Assembly: GCA_016184225.1 (NCBI GenBank)
Contig: JACPDA010000004.1
Coordinates: 538,763-602,762, forward strand
Length of the DNA: 64,000 nt
DNA from: Candidatus Daviesbacteria bacterium
GTDB lineage: Bacteria; Patescibacteriota; Microgenomatia; Daviesbacterales; UBA10151
Direction of reading: 5' to 3'
Under the pieces are notes generated by a model. The model was not told the DNA's origin and did not search any database. It saw only the letters and a program-made list of their open reading frames with translations. A program made the translations under genes and the position numbers. Each line of letters starts with the position of its first letter. The first letter of the stretch is position 1. Shown piece by piece: positions 2,039-35,696 of this stretch.

Positions 2039-3023
2039 AATACAAACCTCAGTAATTATTCCAAATTGGAACGGACGTAAGTTGCTGGAAGATTGTTTCA
2101 ATTCATTAGCTGAACAAACTTTTGAAGACTTTGAAATAATTTTGGTTGATAACGGGTCAACAGATAATTCACTGGAATATGTTAAAAATCATTTTCCCCG
2201 GGTCAGAGTAATTTCTTTAGGGAAAAATTTTGGGTTTGCCAGGGCTATCAATGAAGGGGTTAGGGCATCAAATGCGGAATATGTGGTCTTTTTAAATAAT
2301 GATACCAGTGTTGATAAAAAGTTCCTGGAAGAATTGGTTGAATGTGCTGATTCCCATCCTGAGGTCGTTTCCGTTAATTCAAAACTGCTAAATTTTTATG
2401 ACAAAGAATTGATAGATGGTGTGGGAATTTTAATAAATGAAGTTGGACAGGCCAGATCAATAGGTTGGCGGGAAAAGGATAAGGGGCAGTACGATAGCGA
2501 GCAATATATTTTTGGGGCAACAGGCGGAGCGTCTCTTTTTAGAAGAGAAGATTTTATTAAGGTAGGTCTGCCGGCTGGCGGATTTGATGAAAAATATTTT
2601 TTGTACTCGGAAGAAGTTGACTTTGCCTTTCGAGCCCAGTTTTTAGGGTACAAGTCAATCTATTGCCCTCAGGCAATTGTTTACCATAAACATAAAGCAA
2701 CCTCTAGGAAATTGCCTGCCCATATCGAGTATTGGCAATTTAGGAATATGACCCAAACTATTATTAAGGATTTTCCGGCCGGTATTTTATTTAAAAATTG
2801 GCGGTGGTTAAAAATAATTTTAGTGCACATAAATACTATTTTTTACCAACTAAAAAACGGATTTTGGTGGCCTCCATTTTCAGCAGACCTTTGGATTTTG
2901 TTCCACTTGCCACAACTTCTCCATGAGAGAAAAAGGATTCAGTCAAGCAGGAAAGTGAGTGATGAATATATAGAAAGTTTTTTGACAGAGAAGAAAGTTA
3001 CTTTTTGGGGCTTATGGAAATGA
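2031..3023 (+). CDS. Glycosyltransferase family 2
   Basis: SVIIPNWNG...DFEIILVDNGSTDNS and a DxD-like NNDTSV. Start moved to the internal Met MNKIQTSV so that only the 3' end of the methyltransferase gene is overlapped. Confidence 0.7.
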   Translation: MNKIQTSVIIPNWNGRKLLEDCFNSLAEQTFEDFEIILVDNGSTDNSLEYVKNHFPRVRVISLGKNFGFARAINEGVRASNAEYVVFLNNDTSVDKKFLEELVECADSHPEVVSVNSKLLNFYDKELIDGVGILINEVGQARSIGWREKDKGQYDSEQYIFGATGGASLFRREDFIKVGLPAGGFDEKYFLYSEEVDFAFRAQFLGYKSIYCPQAIVYHKHKATSRKLPAHIEYWQFRNMTQTIIKDFPAGILFKNWRWLKIILVHINTIFYQLKNGFWWPPFSADLWILFHLPQLLHERKRIQSSRKVSDEYIESFLTEKKVTFWGLWK

Positions 3024-4167
3024 GTAATATCCAAGCCAGTATCGGCGGATAAAAAAGGCTGTTGGCAAAAAGGGAGTGGATCAGGAGCCCGGCAAGTCCG
3101 GTAATTAAATATAAATTTTTCCCATCTGAGGATTTGAAGATAGTCCAGAGAAAATACAGATAAGCCACTAGTCCCAAAATGCCGGTGGTTGATGCAACAA
3201 ATAGTAGGGAGGAGTCATTGCTTGATGAACCGTGGCTTTGTAAAAATTGTTCATCCCCCAGTTGATATTTTTTTAAGGCATACCGGTAACTGTTAAAGCC
3301 TACCCCTAAAATTGGATTAGATTTAAAAAGTATTAAGCCTTGTTGCCAGGTGTTGACCCGGGAGGAGGCTGATTGGGCCCGGTCAATGTTGCGGGGGGTG
3401 GTTACCAGTTGACTATAAATTTGAAATCCTAATAACAGGATGACAAAAAGTATTATGGTGGAAAGAAAGTATAGTCTGGATTTTTTTAAAAAAGAAAGAG
3501 TCATGCCGCTTATTAAAAACATTAAATAACTGGATCTGGAAAAGGTAGTTAAAAGGGCAAAGTAGGTAATGGTAAAAAAAATACAAAAAACCCTAGGTGT
3601 CCTACCTGGGCCACCTCCCAGGTGGGATTGGATAAGAAGAATTAAAGTTAAGGTTAGAACCAAGAAAGCGCCGGCGAAGTTAGGATCCAAAAAAGTTGAA
3701 ACAGTCCTAAAGTAGTGGGGGTCCCATCCGGCTATGGTTAAGAAATTCAAATCAGGAAAAAATATAAACTGCAAAAGCCCCAGGGTTGCAAAGGAAATCC
3801 CGGAAAGTAAAAAAACTTTACCCAAATTCTTTCGCAGATCACCAAAGGCGTCGGAAAAGATGAGCCAGGCAAAAAAGACATAGAGGAAGAGTCTGACAGT
3901 ATAAGAAAAACTTAAAAGATATTCAGAAAGGGTTAGGCGTAAAGGGGTAAGGAGTAATGAAATAACTGCAATGAAAATAAAAATAAAAGCCGCAATAATT
4001 TGAGGAGGAGGTTTTTGAAGATGAAACCTTTGCTTTAAAAACCCCACCATACAAAATAAAGCAACGGTAATATCTAAAGCTGTTACGCCGTGTGTTCCTA
4101 TAGGTATCCTGATTAATTGACCGGCTGCAGTGGCAAATGCTAGAATCGAAATCAAAGATAAAGTCAT
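2998..4167 (-). CDS. O-antigen ligase / polymerase-like (Wzy/WaaL family) membrane protein
   Basis: 389-aa protein with about 10 TM segments and a large periplasmic loop, as in the O-antigen ligase domain family. Confidence 0.45.
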   Translation of the reverse strand: MTLSLISILAFATAAGQLIRIPIGTHGVTALDITVALFCMVGFLKQRFHLQKPPPQIIAAFIFIFIAVISLLLTPLRLTLSEYLLSFSYTVRLFLYVFFAWLIFSDAFGDLRKNLGKVFLLSGISFATLGLLQFIFFPDLNFLTIAGWDPHYFRTVSTFLDPNFAGAFLVLTLTLILLIQSHLGGGPGRTPRVFCIFFTITYFALLTTFSRSSYLMFLISGMTLSFLKKSRLYFLSTIILFVILLLGFQIYSQLVTTPRNIDRAQSASSRVNTWQQGLILFKSNPILGVGFNSYRYALKKYQLGDEQFLQSHGSSSNDSSLLFVASTTGILGLVAYLYFLWTIFKSSDGKNLYLITGLAGLLIHSLFANSLFYPPILAWILLISISPKK

Positions 4168-8484: not shown

Positions 8485-8560
8485 GCCGAAGTAGCTCAGT
8501 TGGTAGAGCGGCGGTATCGTAAACCGTAGGTCGTGGGTTCAAATCCCACCTTCGGCTCCA
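8485..8560 (+). tRNA. tRNA-Thr (anticodon CGT), CCA encoded
   Basis: Acceptor GCCGAAG/CTTCGGC. D-arm GCTC/GAGC. Anticodon loop ATCGTAA. T-arm GTGGG TTCAAAT CCCAC. Ends with CCA. Confidence 0.8.
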
Positions 8561-8659
8561 AGTTGGTCAGAAGAGCGACGGTTCGTTCATAGTCGTATGA
8601 CTATGCTTTGCGAAGCAAAGTCCCGTCCACCGGCTCATTGATGACATGAGCTACTTTTT

Positions 8660-8947
8660 TTATGCTGAAATAATTTTCTGTTCGATTTTCTCTACTCTAT
8701 TTTCTAACTTATCATATTCTTCTCTAGTTGGAGTATCGTCTTCCAGATACGCAAGTTGCTTGCCTATCTTATCAATTCTCTCATGGGTACCATCAATACG
8801 TCTATTAACCTCTTCAAAACGTTTATTAACCTCTTCAAACCCTTTGTCTACTTTTCTCTCCAGCTTACCAACTTTCTCTAGTACTTCTTGTCTGAAGGAG
8901 CTTTGGCCGTTTATAATAGCCTGAAGCATTTTATGTGTATCATTCAT
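8660..8947 (-). CDS. Small coiled-coil protein (paralog of the 18825..19139 gene)
   Basis: 95-aa protein rich in heptad-like E/K/R. Its C-terminal half aligns with the 104-aa ORF downstream of obg (VNRRIDGTHERI / INDRLDANTRAV, and LENRVEKIEQK / MEKRVETLEDK). Confidence 0.45.
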   Translation of the reverse strand: MNDTHKMLQAIINGQSSFRQEVLEKVGKLERKVDKGFEEVNKRFEEVNRRIDGTHERIDKIGKQLAYLEDDTPTREEYDKLENRVEKIEQKIISA

Positions 8948-25400: not shown

Positions 25401-26032
25401 CTTTAGAACAGCTGTTGGTTTTTGAAAAGGATTTACTGGGATTTTACTTGCATGAACCACCCTATCTGGCTTCTTTGCAACAGTTAACAAAATTTGTTTC
25501 AAATAAGCTGTCTGATTTAGGGGATGAGCATATAGGCAAGACTTTAAAATTAGGCGGTGTGATAGTTTCCGTTAAGAAGGTGATTACCAAAAAGAGTGCA
25601 AAAGAGATGGCCTTTATTAAAATCTCCGACGGTGTCTCTTCTGTCGAAGTGGTGGTATTCCCCAAAACTTATGAAGAATGTAAAAACTTCCTGACTTCGG
25701 ATCAGGTGGTTTTTATCTTTGGGCGGGTGGAGAAACGGGAAGAAGAGTTGTCTTTGATTGTGGAAAAAATCAGTTTATTTGACCCCGATTCAATCGGGGT
25801 TGATCCTAAAAATGTGGAAATTACCATTCCTTTAGGAACAGATGTAACAGTACTGCAAAATATAAACAGAACTTTACGGGGATTTCCCGGTAAGGTGCCA
25901 GTGGCATTGCTTTTGCATGGCAGTAATGGCAGTGTCAGAAGAATGGATTTACCGTTTTCCATAGACCCTGATCTTTCTTTGGAAGAAAAGATTAAAGGGA
26001 TTTTAGGCGAAGGTGCTTTCAAACTGGTCTAA
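22478..26032 (+). CDS. dnaE: DNA polymerase III alpha subunit
   Basis: PHP domain ([13 protein letters not shown]), polymerase core and OB fold. Contains a ccccgatt-family hairpin in frame at 25781..25800 (DPDSIGVD). Confidence 0.9.
25781..25800. repeat. ccccgatt-family hairpin inside dnaE
   Basis: gaccccgattcaatcggggt. Identical to 34746..34765. A related ccccgattaaatcgggg sits in the tRNA-Lys fragment at 31578..31596. Confidence 0.65.
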
Positions 26033-28071: not shown

Positions 28072-28202
28072 ATCTTTAAGTCTGGCGCCGAGTCAAATTC
28101 GGCTGGCAAGTTTAACTTGCCGCGATCGTTCCCGATGATCGTTGTCATCGAGGATCCTGATAGCGAAGCGTATCGGGGATTGAAAAGTTAATAATTAAAT
28201 CT

Positions 28203-31192: not shown

Positions 31193-31457
31193 GGTTCACT
31201 TTCGGGTTAACCCAAGGGATTACCTGAAATCTTGGCAATTCAGGAGCGTCTACTGTAGTAAAAGTCCTAGGCCCTAAATCTTCCATGATTGGCCGGAAAA
31301 GTATTCTTTTGGCAGTAATGGGTTTTAAAGCCTCTCCTGCATCAGTACAAGGCCGGGAGATAATCACCTCTTTTTCAATACGAATATAGCCCACAACTCT
31401 TTCAGACATATGATATTTTGAAAATCCTACATTGGCAGAAGATGACAGGGTAGGCAC
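31182..31457 (-). CDS. Hypothetical protein
   Basis: 91-aa ORF with no recognised motif. Confidence 0.25.
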   Translation of the reverse strand: MPTLSSSANVGFSKYHMSERVVGYIRIEKEVIISRPCTDAGEALKPITAKRILFRPIMEDLGPRTFTTVDAPELPRFQVIPWVNPKVNHEE

Positions 31458-31562
31458 AATAGTATTACTTATATCATATCAGCCAGCGTATATCAAGAAT
31501 CAGTAGGTTTAAAGATGCGTGAATATTTTGTATAATACAATCTGCTCTCTCCAAAATTCTAC

Positions 31563-31611
31563 GGGCCGGTAGCTCAGCCCCGATTAAATCGGGGTCAGCG
31601 GTAGAGCAGGA
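31563..31611 (+). pseudogene. tRNA-Lys 5' fragment (positions about 1-28) with a 19-nt hairpin insertion in the D-loop
   Basis: gggccggtagctcag[ccccgattaaatcggggtc]agcggtagagcagga matches the 5' part of the intact tRNA-Lys at 31801, then diverges. Confidence 0.65.
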
Positions 31612-31617
31612 TTGTGT

Positions 31618-31810
31618 ATGTTTTACATGTATATACTAAAAAGCCTTGATGAACGGTACTATATCGGTTCAACAAATGATTTAGTATGAGTTAGTTCATA
31701 AAGAAGAGTATGAAACACTTATTGAAGCAAGAGAACGAGAGAAGAAGCTTAAGTCATATAAAAGTAAAAAATATATAAAATGGTTAGTTAGTAAAAATTT
31801 GGGCCGGTAG
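31618..31810 (+). pseudogene. Decayed GIY-YIG nuclease gene (UPF0213/YhbQ-like), with a frameshift and internal deletion
   Basis: ATG...MFYMYILKSLDERYYIGSTNDLV* gives the GIY-x10-YIG motif. The +1 frame continues VHKEEYETLIEAREREKKLKSYKSKKYIKWLVSKNLGR* and ends inside the first 10 nt of tRNA-Lys. Confidence 0.55.
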
Positions 31811-31872
31811 CTCAGCGGTAGAGCAGGAGCCTTTTAAGCTCTTGGTCCAGGGTTCGATTCCCTGCCGGCTCA
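31801..31872 (+). tRNA. tRNA-Lys (anticodon TTT)
   Basis: GGGCCGGTAGCTCAGCGGTAGAGCAGGAGCCTTTTAAGCTCTTGGTCCAGGGTTCGATTCCCTGCCGGCTCA. Confidence 0.8.
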
Positions 31873-31875
31873 CAG

Positions 31876-32838
31876 ATGATCACACAAATCAACTGGGTTG
31901 ATTTTGTAATTGCCGGTATACTACTGGCCTTTGCCCTAGAGGCTGTGGGCAGGCCCCTGATTTTGGAGCTTTTGGACCTGACCAGTTTTGTTTTGGCCGG
32001 CCTGCTATCTTTTAACTACTATAACCTGCCGGCCAGGTTTTTTGAGAGCCGGTTTAGCGTTCCCCACGGCTTGAGTTTAGTTTTAGGTTTTATGGCGGTT
32101 TGGTTTTTATCAGAAGTAGTTTTTTATTTGTTGGCCAGGCTCTTTTTACAAAGGACAACCAGGCTTAAGGTTCCCGCATCCAGGGCTTTATCGGCGATAC
32201 CGGCGTTGCTTCGGGGGTTAATATTCGTGGCCTTAGCCTTGGTTATGGTGGCCACTTTCCCTATTCAGCCGGCCGTCAAAAAAGCTGTTTTAGATTCAAG
32301 GATAGGCAGCCAAATTTTAAGGTATGCATATGCTCTGGAGCAGCCTGTCAAGCAAGTCTTCGGCGGGGTAGCCAATGATTCCCTCACCTTTCTGACGATC
32401 AAGCCTAAGACCGACCAACGGGTGGACTTAGGTTTTCAAACCAGTGAGTTTTCTGTTGATGAGAAATCAGAGGTAGCAATGGTTAACTTAGTTAATAAGG
32501 AAAGAGCTGCCAGGGGGTTAAAAGCGCTAACTTTAGATGTGCGGCTTCGGGCTATAGCCAGGGACTATAGCGGCGATATGTTCCGTAGAGGATATTTTTC
32601 CCACTATTCTCCGGAAGGGTTATCTGTAGCAGACCGGGTTTTAAATGCGGGAATTGACTTTTTGGTAGTGGGAGAAAACCTGGCTTATGCGCCGGATGTG
32701 GTATCAGCGCATAAAGGATTTATGAATTCGGAAGGCCACCGGGCCAATATTTTATCGGAAGATTATTCTAAGGTGGGGATAGGCGTAATGGATGGAGGTG
32801 TGTATGGCCGGATGTTTACCCAGGTATTTGCGAACTAG
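31876..32838 (+). CDS. CvpA-like membrane domain fused to a CAP/SCP (PR-1-like) domain
   Basis: N-terminal four-TM colicin V production-like region. C-terminal CAP motifs (GYFSHYSPEG...GENLAY...HRANIL). Confidence 0.55.
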   Translation: MITQINWVDFVIAGILLAFALEAVGRPLILELLDLTSFVLAGLLSFNYYNLPARFFESRFSVPHGLSLVLGFMAVWFLSEVVFYLLARLFLQRTTRLKVPASRALSAIPALLRGLIFVALALVMVATFPIQPAVKKAVLDSRIGSQILRYAYALEQPVKQVFGGVANDSLTFLTIKPKTDQRVDLGFQTSEFSVDEKSEVAMVNLVNKERAARGLKALTLDVRLRAIARDYSGDMFRRGYFSHYSPEGLSVADRVLNAGIDFLVVGENLAYAPDVVSAHKGFMNSEGHRANILSEDYSKVGIGVMDGGVYGRMFTQVFAN

Positions 32839-33960: not shown

Positions 33961-35696
33961 CGGAAATTCTGCCCATCAGATTATTGCGGGACGAGGACAG
34001 TTTGATTTTTGGGTCATTAAACGTATCTTTGGGAAAACTGGCAAGAATGGATTTTCCGGTTGCGCCTGGTATTGCAGTTACACCACCCACCTTAAAACTT
34101 AAAACTACTTTAGAGAGTTTTGACTTTGGCAGAAAAGAAGTCTTTCAGCAAACCCTTACTTTGGTTAAAATTAAGATAAATAAAATCCCGGTGCCGGAAG
34201 TTTTGATTCGTGAAGCCGGCAATCATAAGGTATTTTTTTTAGACGGAAGGAAAATTAAAGGGCTTAAGGCTTTGTGGGTCGATCTTTTGGACTTTTGGTT
34301 GGAACAGCTTAAAACCAGGCTTTGGAATGGTGGATTTTATCCCGGTATCACGGAAAACTTAAGCCCAAAAGTGGTGGCCTTTGTTAACAATCCGGAAGCC
34401 TTTGTTACCTCCTATGAAGACAATTTGCAGGATGATGTGGTAGTAAATACCAAATCAGGCAAGTTACACCCCACTGATTTGAAGAAAATAGTGGAATTAA
34501 CAGAGTTAGCTGATAAAAAACTGTTTATCCCTAATGAATATGAGTGGGTAGTAGACAGGGGGGTTAAGCTGGTGGGGATAAAGCCATATACTCCAAACCA
34601 TGTCATTCCGGGGACGAACGAAGTGAGAACTCCGGAATCTGATTCTGGACGCGCTGCGCTTGCCAGAATGACAGAAAGTAAAAGCAAAAGTGCTGTTAAA
34701 GTTTTTTTTGATTTATCTCAAGGGTTGGTGGTTGAGAAAGATGTGGACCCCGATTCAATCGGGGTGGACGGAGTTTATATTGCTTCCGAGAAAATTTTTG
34801 ACTTAAACAAGCCTCACGAATCCTTTGATAATCTGGTTTTTAAATTAGTAGAATCTGCTATGACTTTCCCTGACTCTCCTGTTCTTTTTAAATTGGCAGA
34901 TAAATCAGAGGGGATGGGTAAAGTCCGGGGAGCCTTGCGGCTAATTCACCAAAAGAATCTTCTTGATCCATTGTTGGATGCTTTAGATTTTGCCCGCCAT
35001 AAAAGGGGTCTTAATAATATCCATATAGTTATCCCTTTTGTCCGGGGAGTGGGTGAGCTTTTACAGGTTAAAAGAGAGTTGGCCACCAAAAAGCTGATGA
35101 GGAAAGCCTCTTTGCAATACTGGATGGAAGTGGCAATTCCGGAGAACATTATTAATATGGAAGATTATCTTTTGAGCGGGATTGACGGGGTAGTCTTAAA
35201 CTTAAATGAGCTGTTAGCCCATTTAAATGGGTTTGATCCGGCGGAGCCGGAGCTGTCTTTATACAAAAATGAAGTTAGTGGATTAATTAAATTTTTGGAA
35301 GACGGCATTAGGCTTTTGCACAAATCCCAGGTTCCCTTTATAGCTTATGGCAGTTTAAGCCTCTATCCAAAGGTTTTAGAGTTTTTGGTGGGAAAAGGGG
35401 TCTATGGGGTGGTGGTGGAGAAGTACGAAGCCCACTCAGCCCATGACCTGCTACATCAGACAGAAAAAAAGGCTGATTTTAAGAAGGTCAGTTTGACTCA
35501 CCTCGAAGGTGAAGGAAATGCGGTTACACCTTCGAGGTGGAATAAAAGGACATATTCTCCTTTGGGTCCGCCAGTTGGCGGGTTGAGCTCTTCCAGCCAC
35601 TTTGTGATAGGTTTTGATTCCACACTCTGGTGGATTTTGGTAAGTTCATGGGCTAGTACTATTTCCATATTTCCAAAAACTTCTTTCATGTCCTGA
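33957..35696 (+). CDS. PEP-utilizing enzyme family protein (PEP synthase/PPDK-like N-terminal and TIM-barrel domains, with no phospho-His domain recognised)
   Basis: N-terminal LGKLARMDFPVAPGIAVT. C-terminal IPFVRGVGELLQ...GIDGVVLNLNEL. The last 60 or so codons read through a REP doublet and overlap rsmI, so the true stop is likely earlier or was lost. Confidence 0.45.
   Translation: MTEILPIRLLRDEDSLIFGSLNVSLGKLARMDFPVAPGIAVTPPTLKLKTTLESFDFGRKEVFQQTLTLVKIKINKIPVPEVLIREAGNHKVFFLDGRKIKGLKALWVDLLDFWLEQLKTRLWNGGFYPGITENLSPKVVAFVNNPEAFVTSYEDNLQDDVVVNTKSGKLHPTDLKKIVELTELADKKLFIPNEYEWVVDRGVKLVGIKPYTPNHVIPGTNEVRTPESDSGRAALARMTESKSKSAVKVFFDLSQGLVVEKDVDPDSIGVDGVYIASEKIFDLNKPHESFDNLVFKLVESAMTFPDSPVLFKLADKSEGMGKVRGALRLIHQKNLLDPLLDALDFARHKRGLNNIHIVIPFVRGVGELLQVKRELATKKLMRKASLQYWMEVAIPENIINMEDYLLSGIDGVVLNLNELLAHLNGFDPAEPELSLYKNEVSGLIKFLEDGIRLLHKSQVPFIAYGSLSLYPKVLEFLVGKGVYGVVVEKYEAHSAHDLLHQTEKKADFKKVSLTHLEGEGNAVTPSRWNKRTYSPLGPPVGGLSSSSHFVIGFDSTLWWILVSSWASTISIFPKTSFMS
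34746..34765. repeat. ccccgatt-family hairpin inside the PEP-like ORF
   Basis: gaccccgattcaatcggggt, read as DPDSIGVD as in dnaE. Confidence 0.65.
35497..35545. repeat. REP doublet (two cores in inverted orientation) in the overlap of the PEP-like ORF and rsmI
   Basis: CACCTCGAAGGTG at 35501..35513 and CACCTTCGAGGTG at 35529..35541. Confidence 0.7.

Follow-up and report, generated by a model that had tools for sequence, protein, structure and literature searches.

The stretch of DNA analysed here, referred to as the window, comprises 64,000 nucleotides (nt) of a Candidatus Daviesbacteria genome (assembly GCA_016184225.1, contig JACPDA010000004.1, positions 538,763 to 602,762 of the forward strand). 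Directly upstream of its intact tRNA-Lys(TTT) gene lie a copy of the 5' part of that gene, interrupted by a small palindrome, and the remains of an open reading frame (ORF) for a GIY-YIG nuclease, an arrangement for which we use the term cassette. The features of the locus are the following.

31508-31536, plus strand: promoter-like site, TTTAAA-17 nt-TATAAT (10/12 matches, TG extension absent)
31563-31577, plus strand: pseudo-tRNA-Lys nt 1-15 (GGGCCGGTAGCTCAG), the displaced 5' piece (exact match to 31801-31815)
31578-31594, no strand assigned: 17-nt perfect palindrome CCCCGATTAAATCGGGG in the D-loop of the fragment (repeat search and fold)
31595-31611, plus strand: pseudo-tRNA-Lys nt 12-28 (exact match to 31812-31828)
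31618-31689, plus strand: GIY-YIG pseudogene piece 1, 22 N-terminal codons with the GIY...YIG motifs, then V and TGA
31684-31685, plus strand: site of a 59-nt deletion (alignment to the loci L001, L002, L019, L021 and L009)
31688-31810, plus strand: GIY-YIG pseudogene piece 2, in another frame, ELVHKEEYETLIEAREREKKLKSYKSKKYIKWLVSKNLGR, its stop TAG being tRNA nt 8-10
31801-31873, plus strand: intact tRNA-Lys(TTT) (ARAGORN; Rfam RF00005, 71.6 bits)

The repeat search aligned 31563-31578 with 31801-31816 (16 nt identical) and 31595-31611 with 31812-31828 (17 nt identical), two exact blocks that together make up a copy of tRNA-Lys nt 1-28, as a first-pass annotation of the window had recognised. 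This gene segment is present twice in the window, in identical copies, and the ORF lies between the functional and the displaced one, in agreement with the partial tandem duplication around a nuclease remnant that the same annotation had considered. The interruption of the fragment, initially described as a 19-nt hairpin insertion, measures 21 nt: the 17-nt palindrome is followed by TCAG (31595-31598), which repeats tRNA nt 12-15 and represents a target-site duplication of the palindrome. The promoter had been read as TGnTATAAT, but the site found has no TG extension; it stands 26 nt from the tRNA fragment, which is the spacing of a native tRNA promoter. The fragment ends with AGGA, 7 nt before the ATG at 31618, and a 6-nt spacer separates fragment and ATG, which had been thought to adjoin directly. 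This ATG opens MFYMYILKSLDERYYIGSTNDLV, running to the stop at 31689, and the second frame, from 31688, ends at the TAG of 31808-31810, inside the first 10 nt of the intact tRNA-Lys, as the annotation had it. The cassette splits the front of tRNA-Lys into the native promoter, a displaced 5' piece, the ORF and the complete tRNA, and the ORF has no stop codon of its own but ends on the near-universal U8-A9-G10 of the tRNA.

With Rfam at a permissive threshold, 31400-31950 matched tRNA only, and no leader, intron or non-coding RNA family. When the RNA of the fragment was folded, the palindrome was the only stable fold (z = -1.1), and a structured leader RNA is unsupported. A six-frame motif scan found no other GIY-YIG gene in the window, and the ORFs adjoining other tRNAs of the window (8646-8924 and 13291-13587), tried as cassette genes, proved unrelated.

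The GIY-YIG pseudogene and its intact relatives

Taken alone, the 23-residue piece 1 scores below the Pfam threshold (20 bits, with a cut-off of 22.6; E 8.4e-4) and piece 2 gives no match, but the joined pieces match 94 proteins of 72-105 amino acids (aa), plus one 46-aa fragment, nearly all with PF01541; the best match reaches E 3.6e-19 with 83% identity over aligned columns, which bears out the proposed GIY-YIG assignment. Members of this superfamily have the GIY and YIG motifs 10-11 residues apart at the N-terminus, and the window has YMY...YIG at codons 3-17 of piece 1. The change of frame reported at first is real, but it is not a plain frameshift: DNA alignment with five intact relatives revealed a single 59-nt gap after 31684, taking as reference the closest intact relative, L001, and no other lesion. 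About 20 codons are lost with this deletion, among them the conserved (E)RRLKQH..G.TRTTRILKT block, and the reading frame changes; in the intact relative, the flanks of the deletion form the imperfect repeat ATGAtTTAG / ATGAgTTAG. Since R25 and H29 are lost through the deletion, and the Glu region alone of the catalytic core is retained, the window copy is a pseudogene and not an active member. The ratio of nonsynonymous to synonymous substitution rates (dN/dS) between the window and L001 is 0.076 at a dS of 0.82, and equals that between the two intact relatives L001 and L002 (0.08 at a dS of about 0.8). It follows that the gene was under purifying selection until recently, and the inactivation of the window copy is recent relative to its divergence from L001.

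The intact relatives are proteins of 77-100 aa, recognised by the Pfam GIY-YIG model with E-values of 1.8e-13 to 8e-16, with invariant R25, H29, R60 and E61. They consist of a stand-alone domain, with neither an auxiliary domain nor a conserved Asn at the C-terminus; beyond the catalytic domain there is only a basic C-terminal helix (KKLKSYKSKKYIEWLI), and a separate DNA-binding domain is absent. As the bacterial Slx1-like minimal lineage has been defined as a stand-alone domain without the conserved C-terminal Asn (PMC1564403), the absence of this residue and of any extra domain matches them to that lineage. The solved structures nearest in sequence are those of the UPF0213 proteins 1ywl and 1zg2, with SLX1 and I-TevI next, in accordance with the UPF0213-like assignment made in the first pass. 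These UPF0213 proteins (EF2693 for 1ywl and BH0048 for 1zg2, of the E. coli YhbQ type) have the same minimal GIY-YIG domain as the cassette protein, whereas the sequence relationship is distant (E 2e-6 with the profile). The AlphaFold2 model of the relative P0001 (mean predicted local distance difference test score 85.9) has the strand-strand-helix-helix-strand-helix-helix order of the GIY-YIG fold, and its top Foldseek matches are 1zg2, Slx1 (6seh), 1ywl and UvrC (1yd5). A profile built from the intact relatives retrieves 1,685 cluster representatives at E <=1e-10 and 13,880 at <=1e-3. With regard to other assignments, PADLOC gave only weak, generic GIY-YIG matches and hence no defence system, and NCBIfam only a sub-threshold match to a group I intron endonuclease.

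Cassettes at tRNA genes

A scan of one genome per species yielded 231 relatives, and 80 loci were fetched, mostly from Microgenomates, Parcubacteria and Saccharibacteria, with a few from Omnitrophota, Acidobacteriota and Bacteroidales. The survey set comprised 95 non-redundant ORFs from public genomes. Cassettes that share this layout and have an intact ORF are widespread, at many different tRNA genes, and evolve under purifying selection. Of the 95 ORFs, 66 are immediately followed by an intact tRNA on the same strand, while 17 have the mirror layout, in which the intact tRNA is directly followed by the ORF and then by a partial 3' tRNA copy starting in the D-arm; the remaining 12 have no assigned layout, at least five of them being at contig ends. 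The host tRNAs belong to 13 amino-acid identities. The commonest stop codon is formed by tRNA nt 8-10 (31/65), which read TAG in 30 of the 31 cases, and in four cases the TAG of GGTAGAGC serves as stop. Many homologues end in GR, GP or GPVAQR, and P0013 in APVAQRIEQ, all of which are tRNA 5' ends translated in three frames.

Upstream of the ATG, 51 of the 66 upstream-type cassettes have a stretch of 10 nt or more identical to the cognate tRNA, and 12 of the 17 downstream-type ones also have a cognate block. Where the fragment stops varies: at tRNA nt 22-31 in the cluster nearest the window, mostly with 1-12 nt left to the ATG, and in distant members as far along as nt 48-58, in the T-arm. Fragments of the mirror class begin at nt 13-21. 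The fragment of tRNA-Lys modules finishes with AGGAG or AGGA, 5-7 nt short of the start codon. Five loci (L001, L002, L009, L019 and L021) have a 5' tRNA fragment with palindrome, the ORF and then the tRNA, as in the window, the downstream tRNA of L001 and L002 being seen only by its 5' end, at a contig end. L001 reads GGGCCGGTAGCTCAG, palindrome, TCAGCGGTAGAGCAGGA, 5 nt, and an ATG opening an ORF that terminates in GR with its stop inside the next GGGCCGGTAG; L002 is organised likewise. In L003-L008, a palindrome-riddled fragment of a different tRNA lies upstream and tRNA-Ile(TAT) downstream. Non-cognate fragments occur at a few loci (L003, L013, L030 and L033), and represent the opposite of what is expected from the mobile ORFs (mORFs) of fungal mitochondria, where the functional copy is foreign and the displaced one native.

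For 43 of 81 nucleases, the nearest neighbour resides at a tRNA for the same amino acid, compared with 8.7% expected at random, and the 29-member cluster holding the window's relatives includes cassettes at Lys, Arg, His, Ile and Gly tRNAs; fidelity to a site and switching between tRNA types are both present. Tandem and multiple modules were found in L010, L013 and L037. In the acidobacterial L037, positions 2240-2600 hold four tandem 89-nt units, each a copy of tRNA-Val nt 1-52 with a 37-nt spacer and with GGCCGACCCGTCGGCC in place of the anticodon arm; at 2600-3310, after the intact tRNA-Val, follow two tandem units of an ORF and a 3' pseudo-tRNA, the first ORF having an early stop. Gene callers extend ORFs such as P0007 and P0013 into the palindrome (N-terminal ...PIKSGS...) or through the tRNA (C-terminal APVAQRIEQ...), and four short-read contigs (L108-L111), each with the gene neighbouring tRNA-Lys, start inside that tRNA, 57-58 nt upstream of the neighbouring gene. 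The module thus causes artefacts of both annotation and assembly.

The comparison of tRNA-Lys loci that the first-pass annotation had called for, made here with the help of relatives recovered via the neighbouring CvpA/CAP gene and extending across different species, not strains, uncovered intact cassettes, eroded ones and an empty site, signs of repeated gain and loss. The cassette is intact in L001, L009, L019 and L021, carries the deletion in the window, lacks the ORF in L089, L093 and L101, and is missing from L091, where the promoter directly precedes tRNA-Lys and leaves no room for it. In L089, the closest relative (77% identity in the neighbour gene), the promoter is followed by GGGCCGGTAGTTCAGCGG, about 170 nt of hairpin-rich non-coding DNA and the tRNA; L093 and L101 likewise have the fragment and an ORF-less spacer, of about 130 nt. 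A -10-like box lies 17-21 nt before tRNA nt 1 in L091 or before the fragment in L089. In both the window and L089, the fragment occupies the usual place of the tRNA relative to the -10 box, an argument for taking it as the gene's original 5' end.

The window's tRNA-Lys module is co-oriented with the downstream CvpA/CAP gene, and the opposite holds in all relatives recovered, so the module was inverted or relocated in the window lineage. In L002 and L089, an extra gene stands between the module and the CvpA/CAP gene.

The 21-nt palindromic unit

The sequence CCCCGATT[A/C]AATCGGGG occurs in three copies in the window, compared with 0.2 expected. Besides the one in the tRNA fragment, these are the following.

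25783-25803, plus strand: second palindrome copy (CCCCGATTCAATCGGGG) with a TTGA duplication, 21 nt, in frame, encoding DPDSIGV
34748-34768, plus strand: third palindrome copy with a TGGA duplication, 21 nt, in frame, encoding DPDSIGV, in a 579-aa ORF

The second copy belongs to the DNA polymerase III alpha gene, where it lies in the variable C-terminal linker, and the homologue P0097 has the same heptapeptide elsewhere in this linker. As for the third, homologues of the 579-aa ORF in L093 and L096 lack exactly these seven codons and have a single target, which makes them empty sites, and L091 has a diverged yet palindromic copy at the same codon, with a TTGA duplication that matches its own local sequence. 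A 21-nt TTCCGATTCAATCGGAA unit is also present near the C-terminus of P0001. All four in-ORF copies (two in the window, one each in P0097 and P0001) are in the same reading frame, in which a central A or G would make a stop codon. One in-ORF site reads GTGGACGG. In the D-loop insertions of relatives, the duplication is TCAG, TCAA or TAAA according to the local tRNA, and tandem and nested copies occur; the same palindrome is found at the same position of the fragment. The ORFs of L016 and of L017/L018 are 97-100% identical, but their palindromes have different central bases (A or T); the orientation of the palindrome is therefore unconstrained. The inverted repeats, the varying 4-nt duplications, the dispersed copies and the empty sites in L093 and L096 are features resembling those of miniature inverted-repeat transposable elements, but no parent insertion sequence was identified for the 17-nt palindrome. 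We infer that the latter forms a separate insertion unit of 21 nt (17 nt plus the 4-nt duplication).

A perfect GC-rich hairpin lies within 160 nt upstream of 61 of 66 cassettes, compared with 38 of 304 control windows, and 143 CCG[AC]-type hairpins were counted next to cassettes and 78 in the rest of the 435 kb surveyed. Where modules of different nuclease clades share one locus (L010, L013, L054 and L063), their palindrome types differ. Distant relatives show a clean substitution of the fragment's anticodon arm by a 16-18-nt palindrome, with no duplication. Two options remain to account for the regular association of palindrome and module: a survival bias, a palindrome in the middle of the repeat shortening the homology able to delete the ORF, or a genuine functional partnership of palindrome and nuclease.

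An 18-nt perfect palindrome, ATCCGCCGGCCGGCGGAT, at 61394-61411 inside the ORF 60379-61743, may be another in-ORF palindromic insertion; its arms are related to the ATCCGC...GCGGAT palindromes near tRNA-Asp and in L093. Other tRNA genes of the window are also accompanied by hairpins. At 8561-8636 (plus strand), a diverged copy of tRNA-Thr nt 14-75 abuts tRNA-Thr (8485-8560) without spacer, with hairpins CATAGTCGTATGACTATG and CTTTGCGAAGCAAAG in place of the anticodon/T-arm region; its alignment score is 40, compared with 19.9 +/- 4.2 in shuffles, and it looks like an ORF-less module of the mirror type. A diverged pseudo-tRNA-Asp with palindrome ATCCGCTCTTGCAGCGGAT (14058-14188, minus strand) follows tRNA-Asp (14189-14262, minus strand) and ends with an exact 18-nt copy of the tRNA 3' end (score 47, compared with 22 +/- 3.8). 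A near-identical 143-nt copy of it lies 2 kb away (12090-12232, minus strand); the segment that these two repeats delimit (12090-14190) has three small ORFs and may be a small island or an att-like scar. Between a TATAAT box and tRNA-Glu, a leader of about 120 nt (28079-28201) is packed with hairpins (GCCGAGTCAAATTCGGC, GGCAAGTTTAACTTGCC and CCCGAT...ATCGGGG) and begins with TGGCGCC, similar to the TGACGCC of the tRNA; as a candidate pseudo-tRNA-Glu it was rejected, its score of 24 being not significant relative to 20.3 +/- 3.7.

Proposed origin and spread of the cassettes

In our best reading, the cassette is a selfish element of the homing type, built on a minimal Slx1/UPF0213-like nuclease of about 80 aa whose activity and mobility are putative. 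That the window region is a decayed member of this large family, resident in tRNA genes of the ultra-small Patescibacteria, which arrived by insertion with duplication of part of the tRNA, we regard as probable; a specific mechanism of homing by repair is proposed more tentatively, with a little less than an even chance of being correct. Transcription of the ORF would start from the tRNA promoter, the AGGA(G) of anticodon-stem nt 26-30 in the fragment would serve as ribosome-binding site in tRNA-Lys cassettes, and RNase P would free the tRNA from the 3' end of the same transcript. The RNase P cut would also remove the last three codons of the ORF together with its stop, so that one transcript could not yield both the complete ORF with stop and a mature tRNA. 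In the proposed mechanism of spread, the nuclease would cut cassette-free tRNA genes at a conserved D-arm or T-loop sequence, and repair would copy the ORF and the adjoining tRNA stretch, leaving a functional tRNA and a displaced fragment; the cassette may spread in this way as a free-standing homing-endonuclease gene, comparable to the mORFs of fungal mitochondria. The palindrome would colonise the non-functional fragment, where, by splitting the 28-nt direct repeat into blocks of 16 and 17 nt, it may protect the cassette from recombinational deletion. The earlier suggestion of a remnant of a GIY-YIG homing-endonuclease-type element targeting tRNA-Lys is supported by the intact relatives that share the layout, by the 13 tRNA identities and by the empty and eroded tRNA-Lys sites, homing itself being the presumed part.

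Several points weigh against a selfish, homing-type cassette. The arguments for the supposed cleavage site and transfer are purely comparative. The occupied allele keeps an intact tRNA, hence any target lying wholly inside the tRNA, and self-immunity is unexplained; moreover, there is no separate DNA-binding domain, unlike in characterised GIY-YIG homing enzymes. A scan of viral contigs returned partial N-terminal matches only and no full-length relatives, hence no known vector. The Slx1-like lineage has been regarded as mainly vertically inherited in a phylogenomic study (PMC1564403). Purifying selection (dN/dS 0.08), unusually strong for a selfish gene, and the frequent retention at the same tRNA type fit a host-useful gene equally well. 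At most loci, both tRNA copies are of the local type, which is easier to understand as duplication of the target than as foreign import, and the presence of the palindrome in 61 of 66 cassettes exceeds what passive colonisation leads one to expect.

A host-useful nuclease, acting in DNA repair, in the processing of imported DNA or in a tRNA-related RNA function, and located in tRNA operons for co-expression, would turn the tRNA fragments into scars of a few ancient insertions followed by vertical inheritance, the window having lost its copy. The bacterial Slx1-like family has been judged to be mostly vertical, with fusions to or neighbourhood with COG4123 and TrmH-like methyltransferases (PMC1564403). 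The low dN/dS (about 0.08 at a dS of about 0.8), the presence of the gene at tRNA-Lys(TTT) in Levy-, Woyke- and Gottesmanbacteria, and nearest neighbours at the same tRNA type in 53% of cases all point in this direction; COG4123, which we take to be a tRNA m6A methyltransferase, is a lead only. This explanation nevertheless appears unlikely to us, as occupancy varies among close relatives (the site is empty in L091, and L089, L093 and the window have eroded ones), 47% of nearest neighbours reside at a different tRNA type, and the 13 tRNA identities with locally matching fragments would require many independent insertions. Both layout orientations, the tandem arrays and the several diverged copies within 3 kb are likewise hard to reconcile with it. 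We consider it very improbable that the locus represents a tRNA-Lys gene split or interrupted by an intron, or a short tandem duplication produced by chance or by the assembly, in either case without a mobile element. The four short-read contigs starting within tRNA-Lys do indicate that the repeat troubles assemblers, but the downstream tRNA is complete (71.6 bits), no intron family matches at an E of 10 or better, and the ORF is free-standing and a bona fide GIY-YIG homologue, all of which dismisses the former intron also envisaged at first. The E-values exclude chance, as does the fact that dozens of independent assemblies and taxa have the same architecture. A transposition of the cut-and-paste type, with a long duplication of the target, would account for the locally matching fragments and for the ORF-less tRNA-Thr footprint; we set it aside as less probable, since a hydrolytic nuclease lacks joining activity and inverted repeats are absent from the ends of the ORF.

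Another reading makes nuclease and palindrome a working pair, analogous to repetitive extragenic palindromic (REP) sequences and REP-associated tyrosine transposases (RAYTs), and we give it as little weight as the host-useful nuclease. The enzyme would recognise or cut D-loop-like TNRR|YGG or the palindrome, inserting or swapping in 17-nt palindromes, and the palindrome in the tRNA fragment would be the cassette's own cis element and not a passive passenger. The excess of hairpins upstream of cassettes (61/66, compared with 38/304 in controls) and of the CCG[AC] type near them (143, compared with 78 elsewhere), the distinct palindrome types of different nuclease clades in one locus, and the dispersed copies with 4-nt local duplications (TCAG, TCAA, TAAA, TTGA and TGGA) are in its favour, as is the similarity to the D-loop CTCAR|YGG of the in-ORF site GTKGA|YGG, at which two lineages have insertions with different local duplications. 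However, intact cassettes without any palindrome exist (L020 and L027), palindromes are not symmetrical around the gene, the within-locus comparison is based on four loci only, and the replacement of the anticodon arm without duplication in distant relatives means that one mechanism does not cover both situations. To our knowledge, GIY-YIG enzymes are hydrolytic nucleases with no strand-transfer activity, which we also count against a working pair. In its most explicit form, which is somewhat less likely again, nuclease and palindrome would be two halves of one system making 4-nt staggered cuts in tRNA D-loop-like DNA or in hairpins that tRNA genes extrude, into which palindromes are pasted or swapped. 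If true, these 21-nt units (the duplication included, exactly seven codons) would be the smallest bacterial mobile units known, and would inactivate spare copies of the target and occasionally add DPDSIGV to proteins; the UPF0213/bacterial Slx1 family would consist of tRNA-gene parasites, and a transposition-like mechanism carried out by a hydrolytic nuclease would be new.

To place the favoured homing-type cassette among known systems, the closest comparison is with the mORFs, described in atp6 of Allomyces macrogynus and in atp6, atp9, cox2 and nad3 hybrids of Glomus. These have a free-standing endonuclease ORF of the LAGLIDADG type, or of the GIY-YIG type in atp9; the insert brings a replacement gene end, the native end is displaced as a duplicate, and one insert, in phase with its host gene, brings no stop codon itself (PMC3630166). 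The cassettes share with them the duplicated gene end and, in the case of that one mORF, the missing stop. However, the host is here a bacterial chromosomal tRNA gene, with no synonymous freedom for a cleavage-resistant restored copy, the duplication may concern either end of the gene, the nuclease consists of a minimal Slx1-like domain of 80 aa, and the displaced piece almost always contains a palindrome. SegB of phage T4 is a free-standing GIY-YIG homing endonuclease encoded in a tRNA gene cluster; its site, 27 bp long, includes the T-loop motif of tRNAs, and the enzyme drives the inheritance of itself and of flanking tRNA genes (PMC2330249). It resembles the cassette as a GIY-YIG gene among tRNA genes, but it is phage-borne and located between genes, with no partial tRNA duplication and no sharing of a stop codon. 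SegB is also a much larger protein with a separate DNA-binding region.

Short dispersed palindromes are known from REP/RAYT systems, Rickettsia palindromic elements, and the GC clusters and double-hairpin elements of fungal mitochondria; some of these small mobile palindromes lie in frame in protein genes and some are clustered near tRNA genes or mobile ORFs. The unit of the window differs from them in having only 17 nt plus a 4-nt duplication, that is, seven codons, and in being tied to a GIY-YIG gene and tRNA fragments. With regard to REP/RAYT, the resemblance is functional only: the transposase there is a HUH Y1 enzyme, whereas the nuclease here is GIY-YIG, no HUH was seen and the palindromes are one-sided. 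In the candidate phyla radiation (CPR), some insertion sequences of rRNA genes encode homing endonucleases, and GIY-YIG domains occur in some non-intron inserts; these GIY-YIG cases are sparse and were judged to be outside a homing context, and the paper makes no mention of tRNA genes (PMC11270868). The host group is the same and structural-RNA genes are likewise interrupted by endonuclease-encoding inserts, but these CPR inserts lie inside rRNA genes. The 2006 phylogenomic survey considered bacterial Slx1-like proteins to be mainly vertically inherited repair factors, mentioned no linkage of them to tRNA genes, and asked whether further GIY-YIG members are molecular parasites (PMC1564403). 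No description of the present arrangement was found in the literature searched, in which the CPR rRNA inserts (PMC11270868) and this survey (PMC1564403) come nearest. At the level of the family, the arrangement appears to be that of a free-standing homing-type ORF with partial duplication of the host gene, and the regularities of the family and the 21-nt unit appear to be undescribed.

Taken alone, the feature of the window is a dead gene and an ordinary case of decay, but it leads to an arrangement that is regular and widespread. From the tRNA, the cassettes borrow their stop codon (U8-A9-G10) and, apparently, their promoter. Gene callers misextend their ORFs, and the duplicated piece of the tRNA interrupts short-read assemblies. 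Still without an assigned function after their structures were solved in 2005, the bacterial Slx1-like/UPF0213 proteins are now linked to tRNA genes, and the cassette family bears on the question, posed by the 2006 survey, of whether GIY-YIG members beyond the known homing and restriction enzymes are molecular parasites. The 21-nt unit, in frame in proteins, offers a tractable example of selfish DNA tolerated by very compact genomes.

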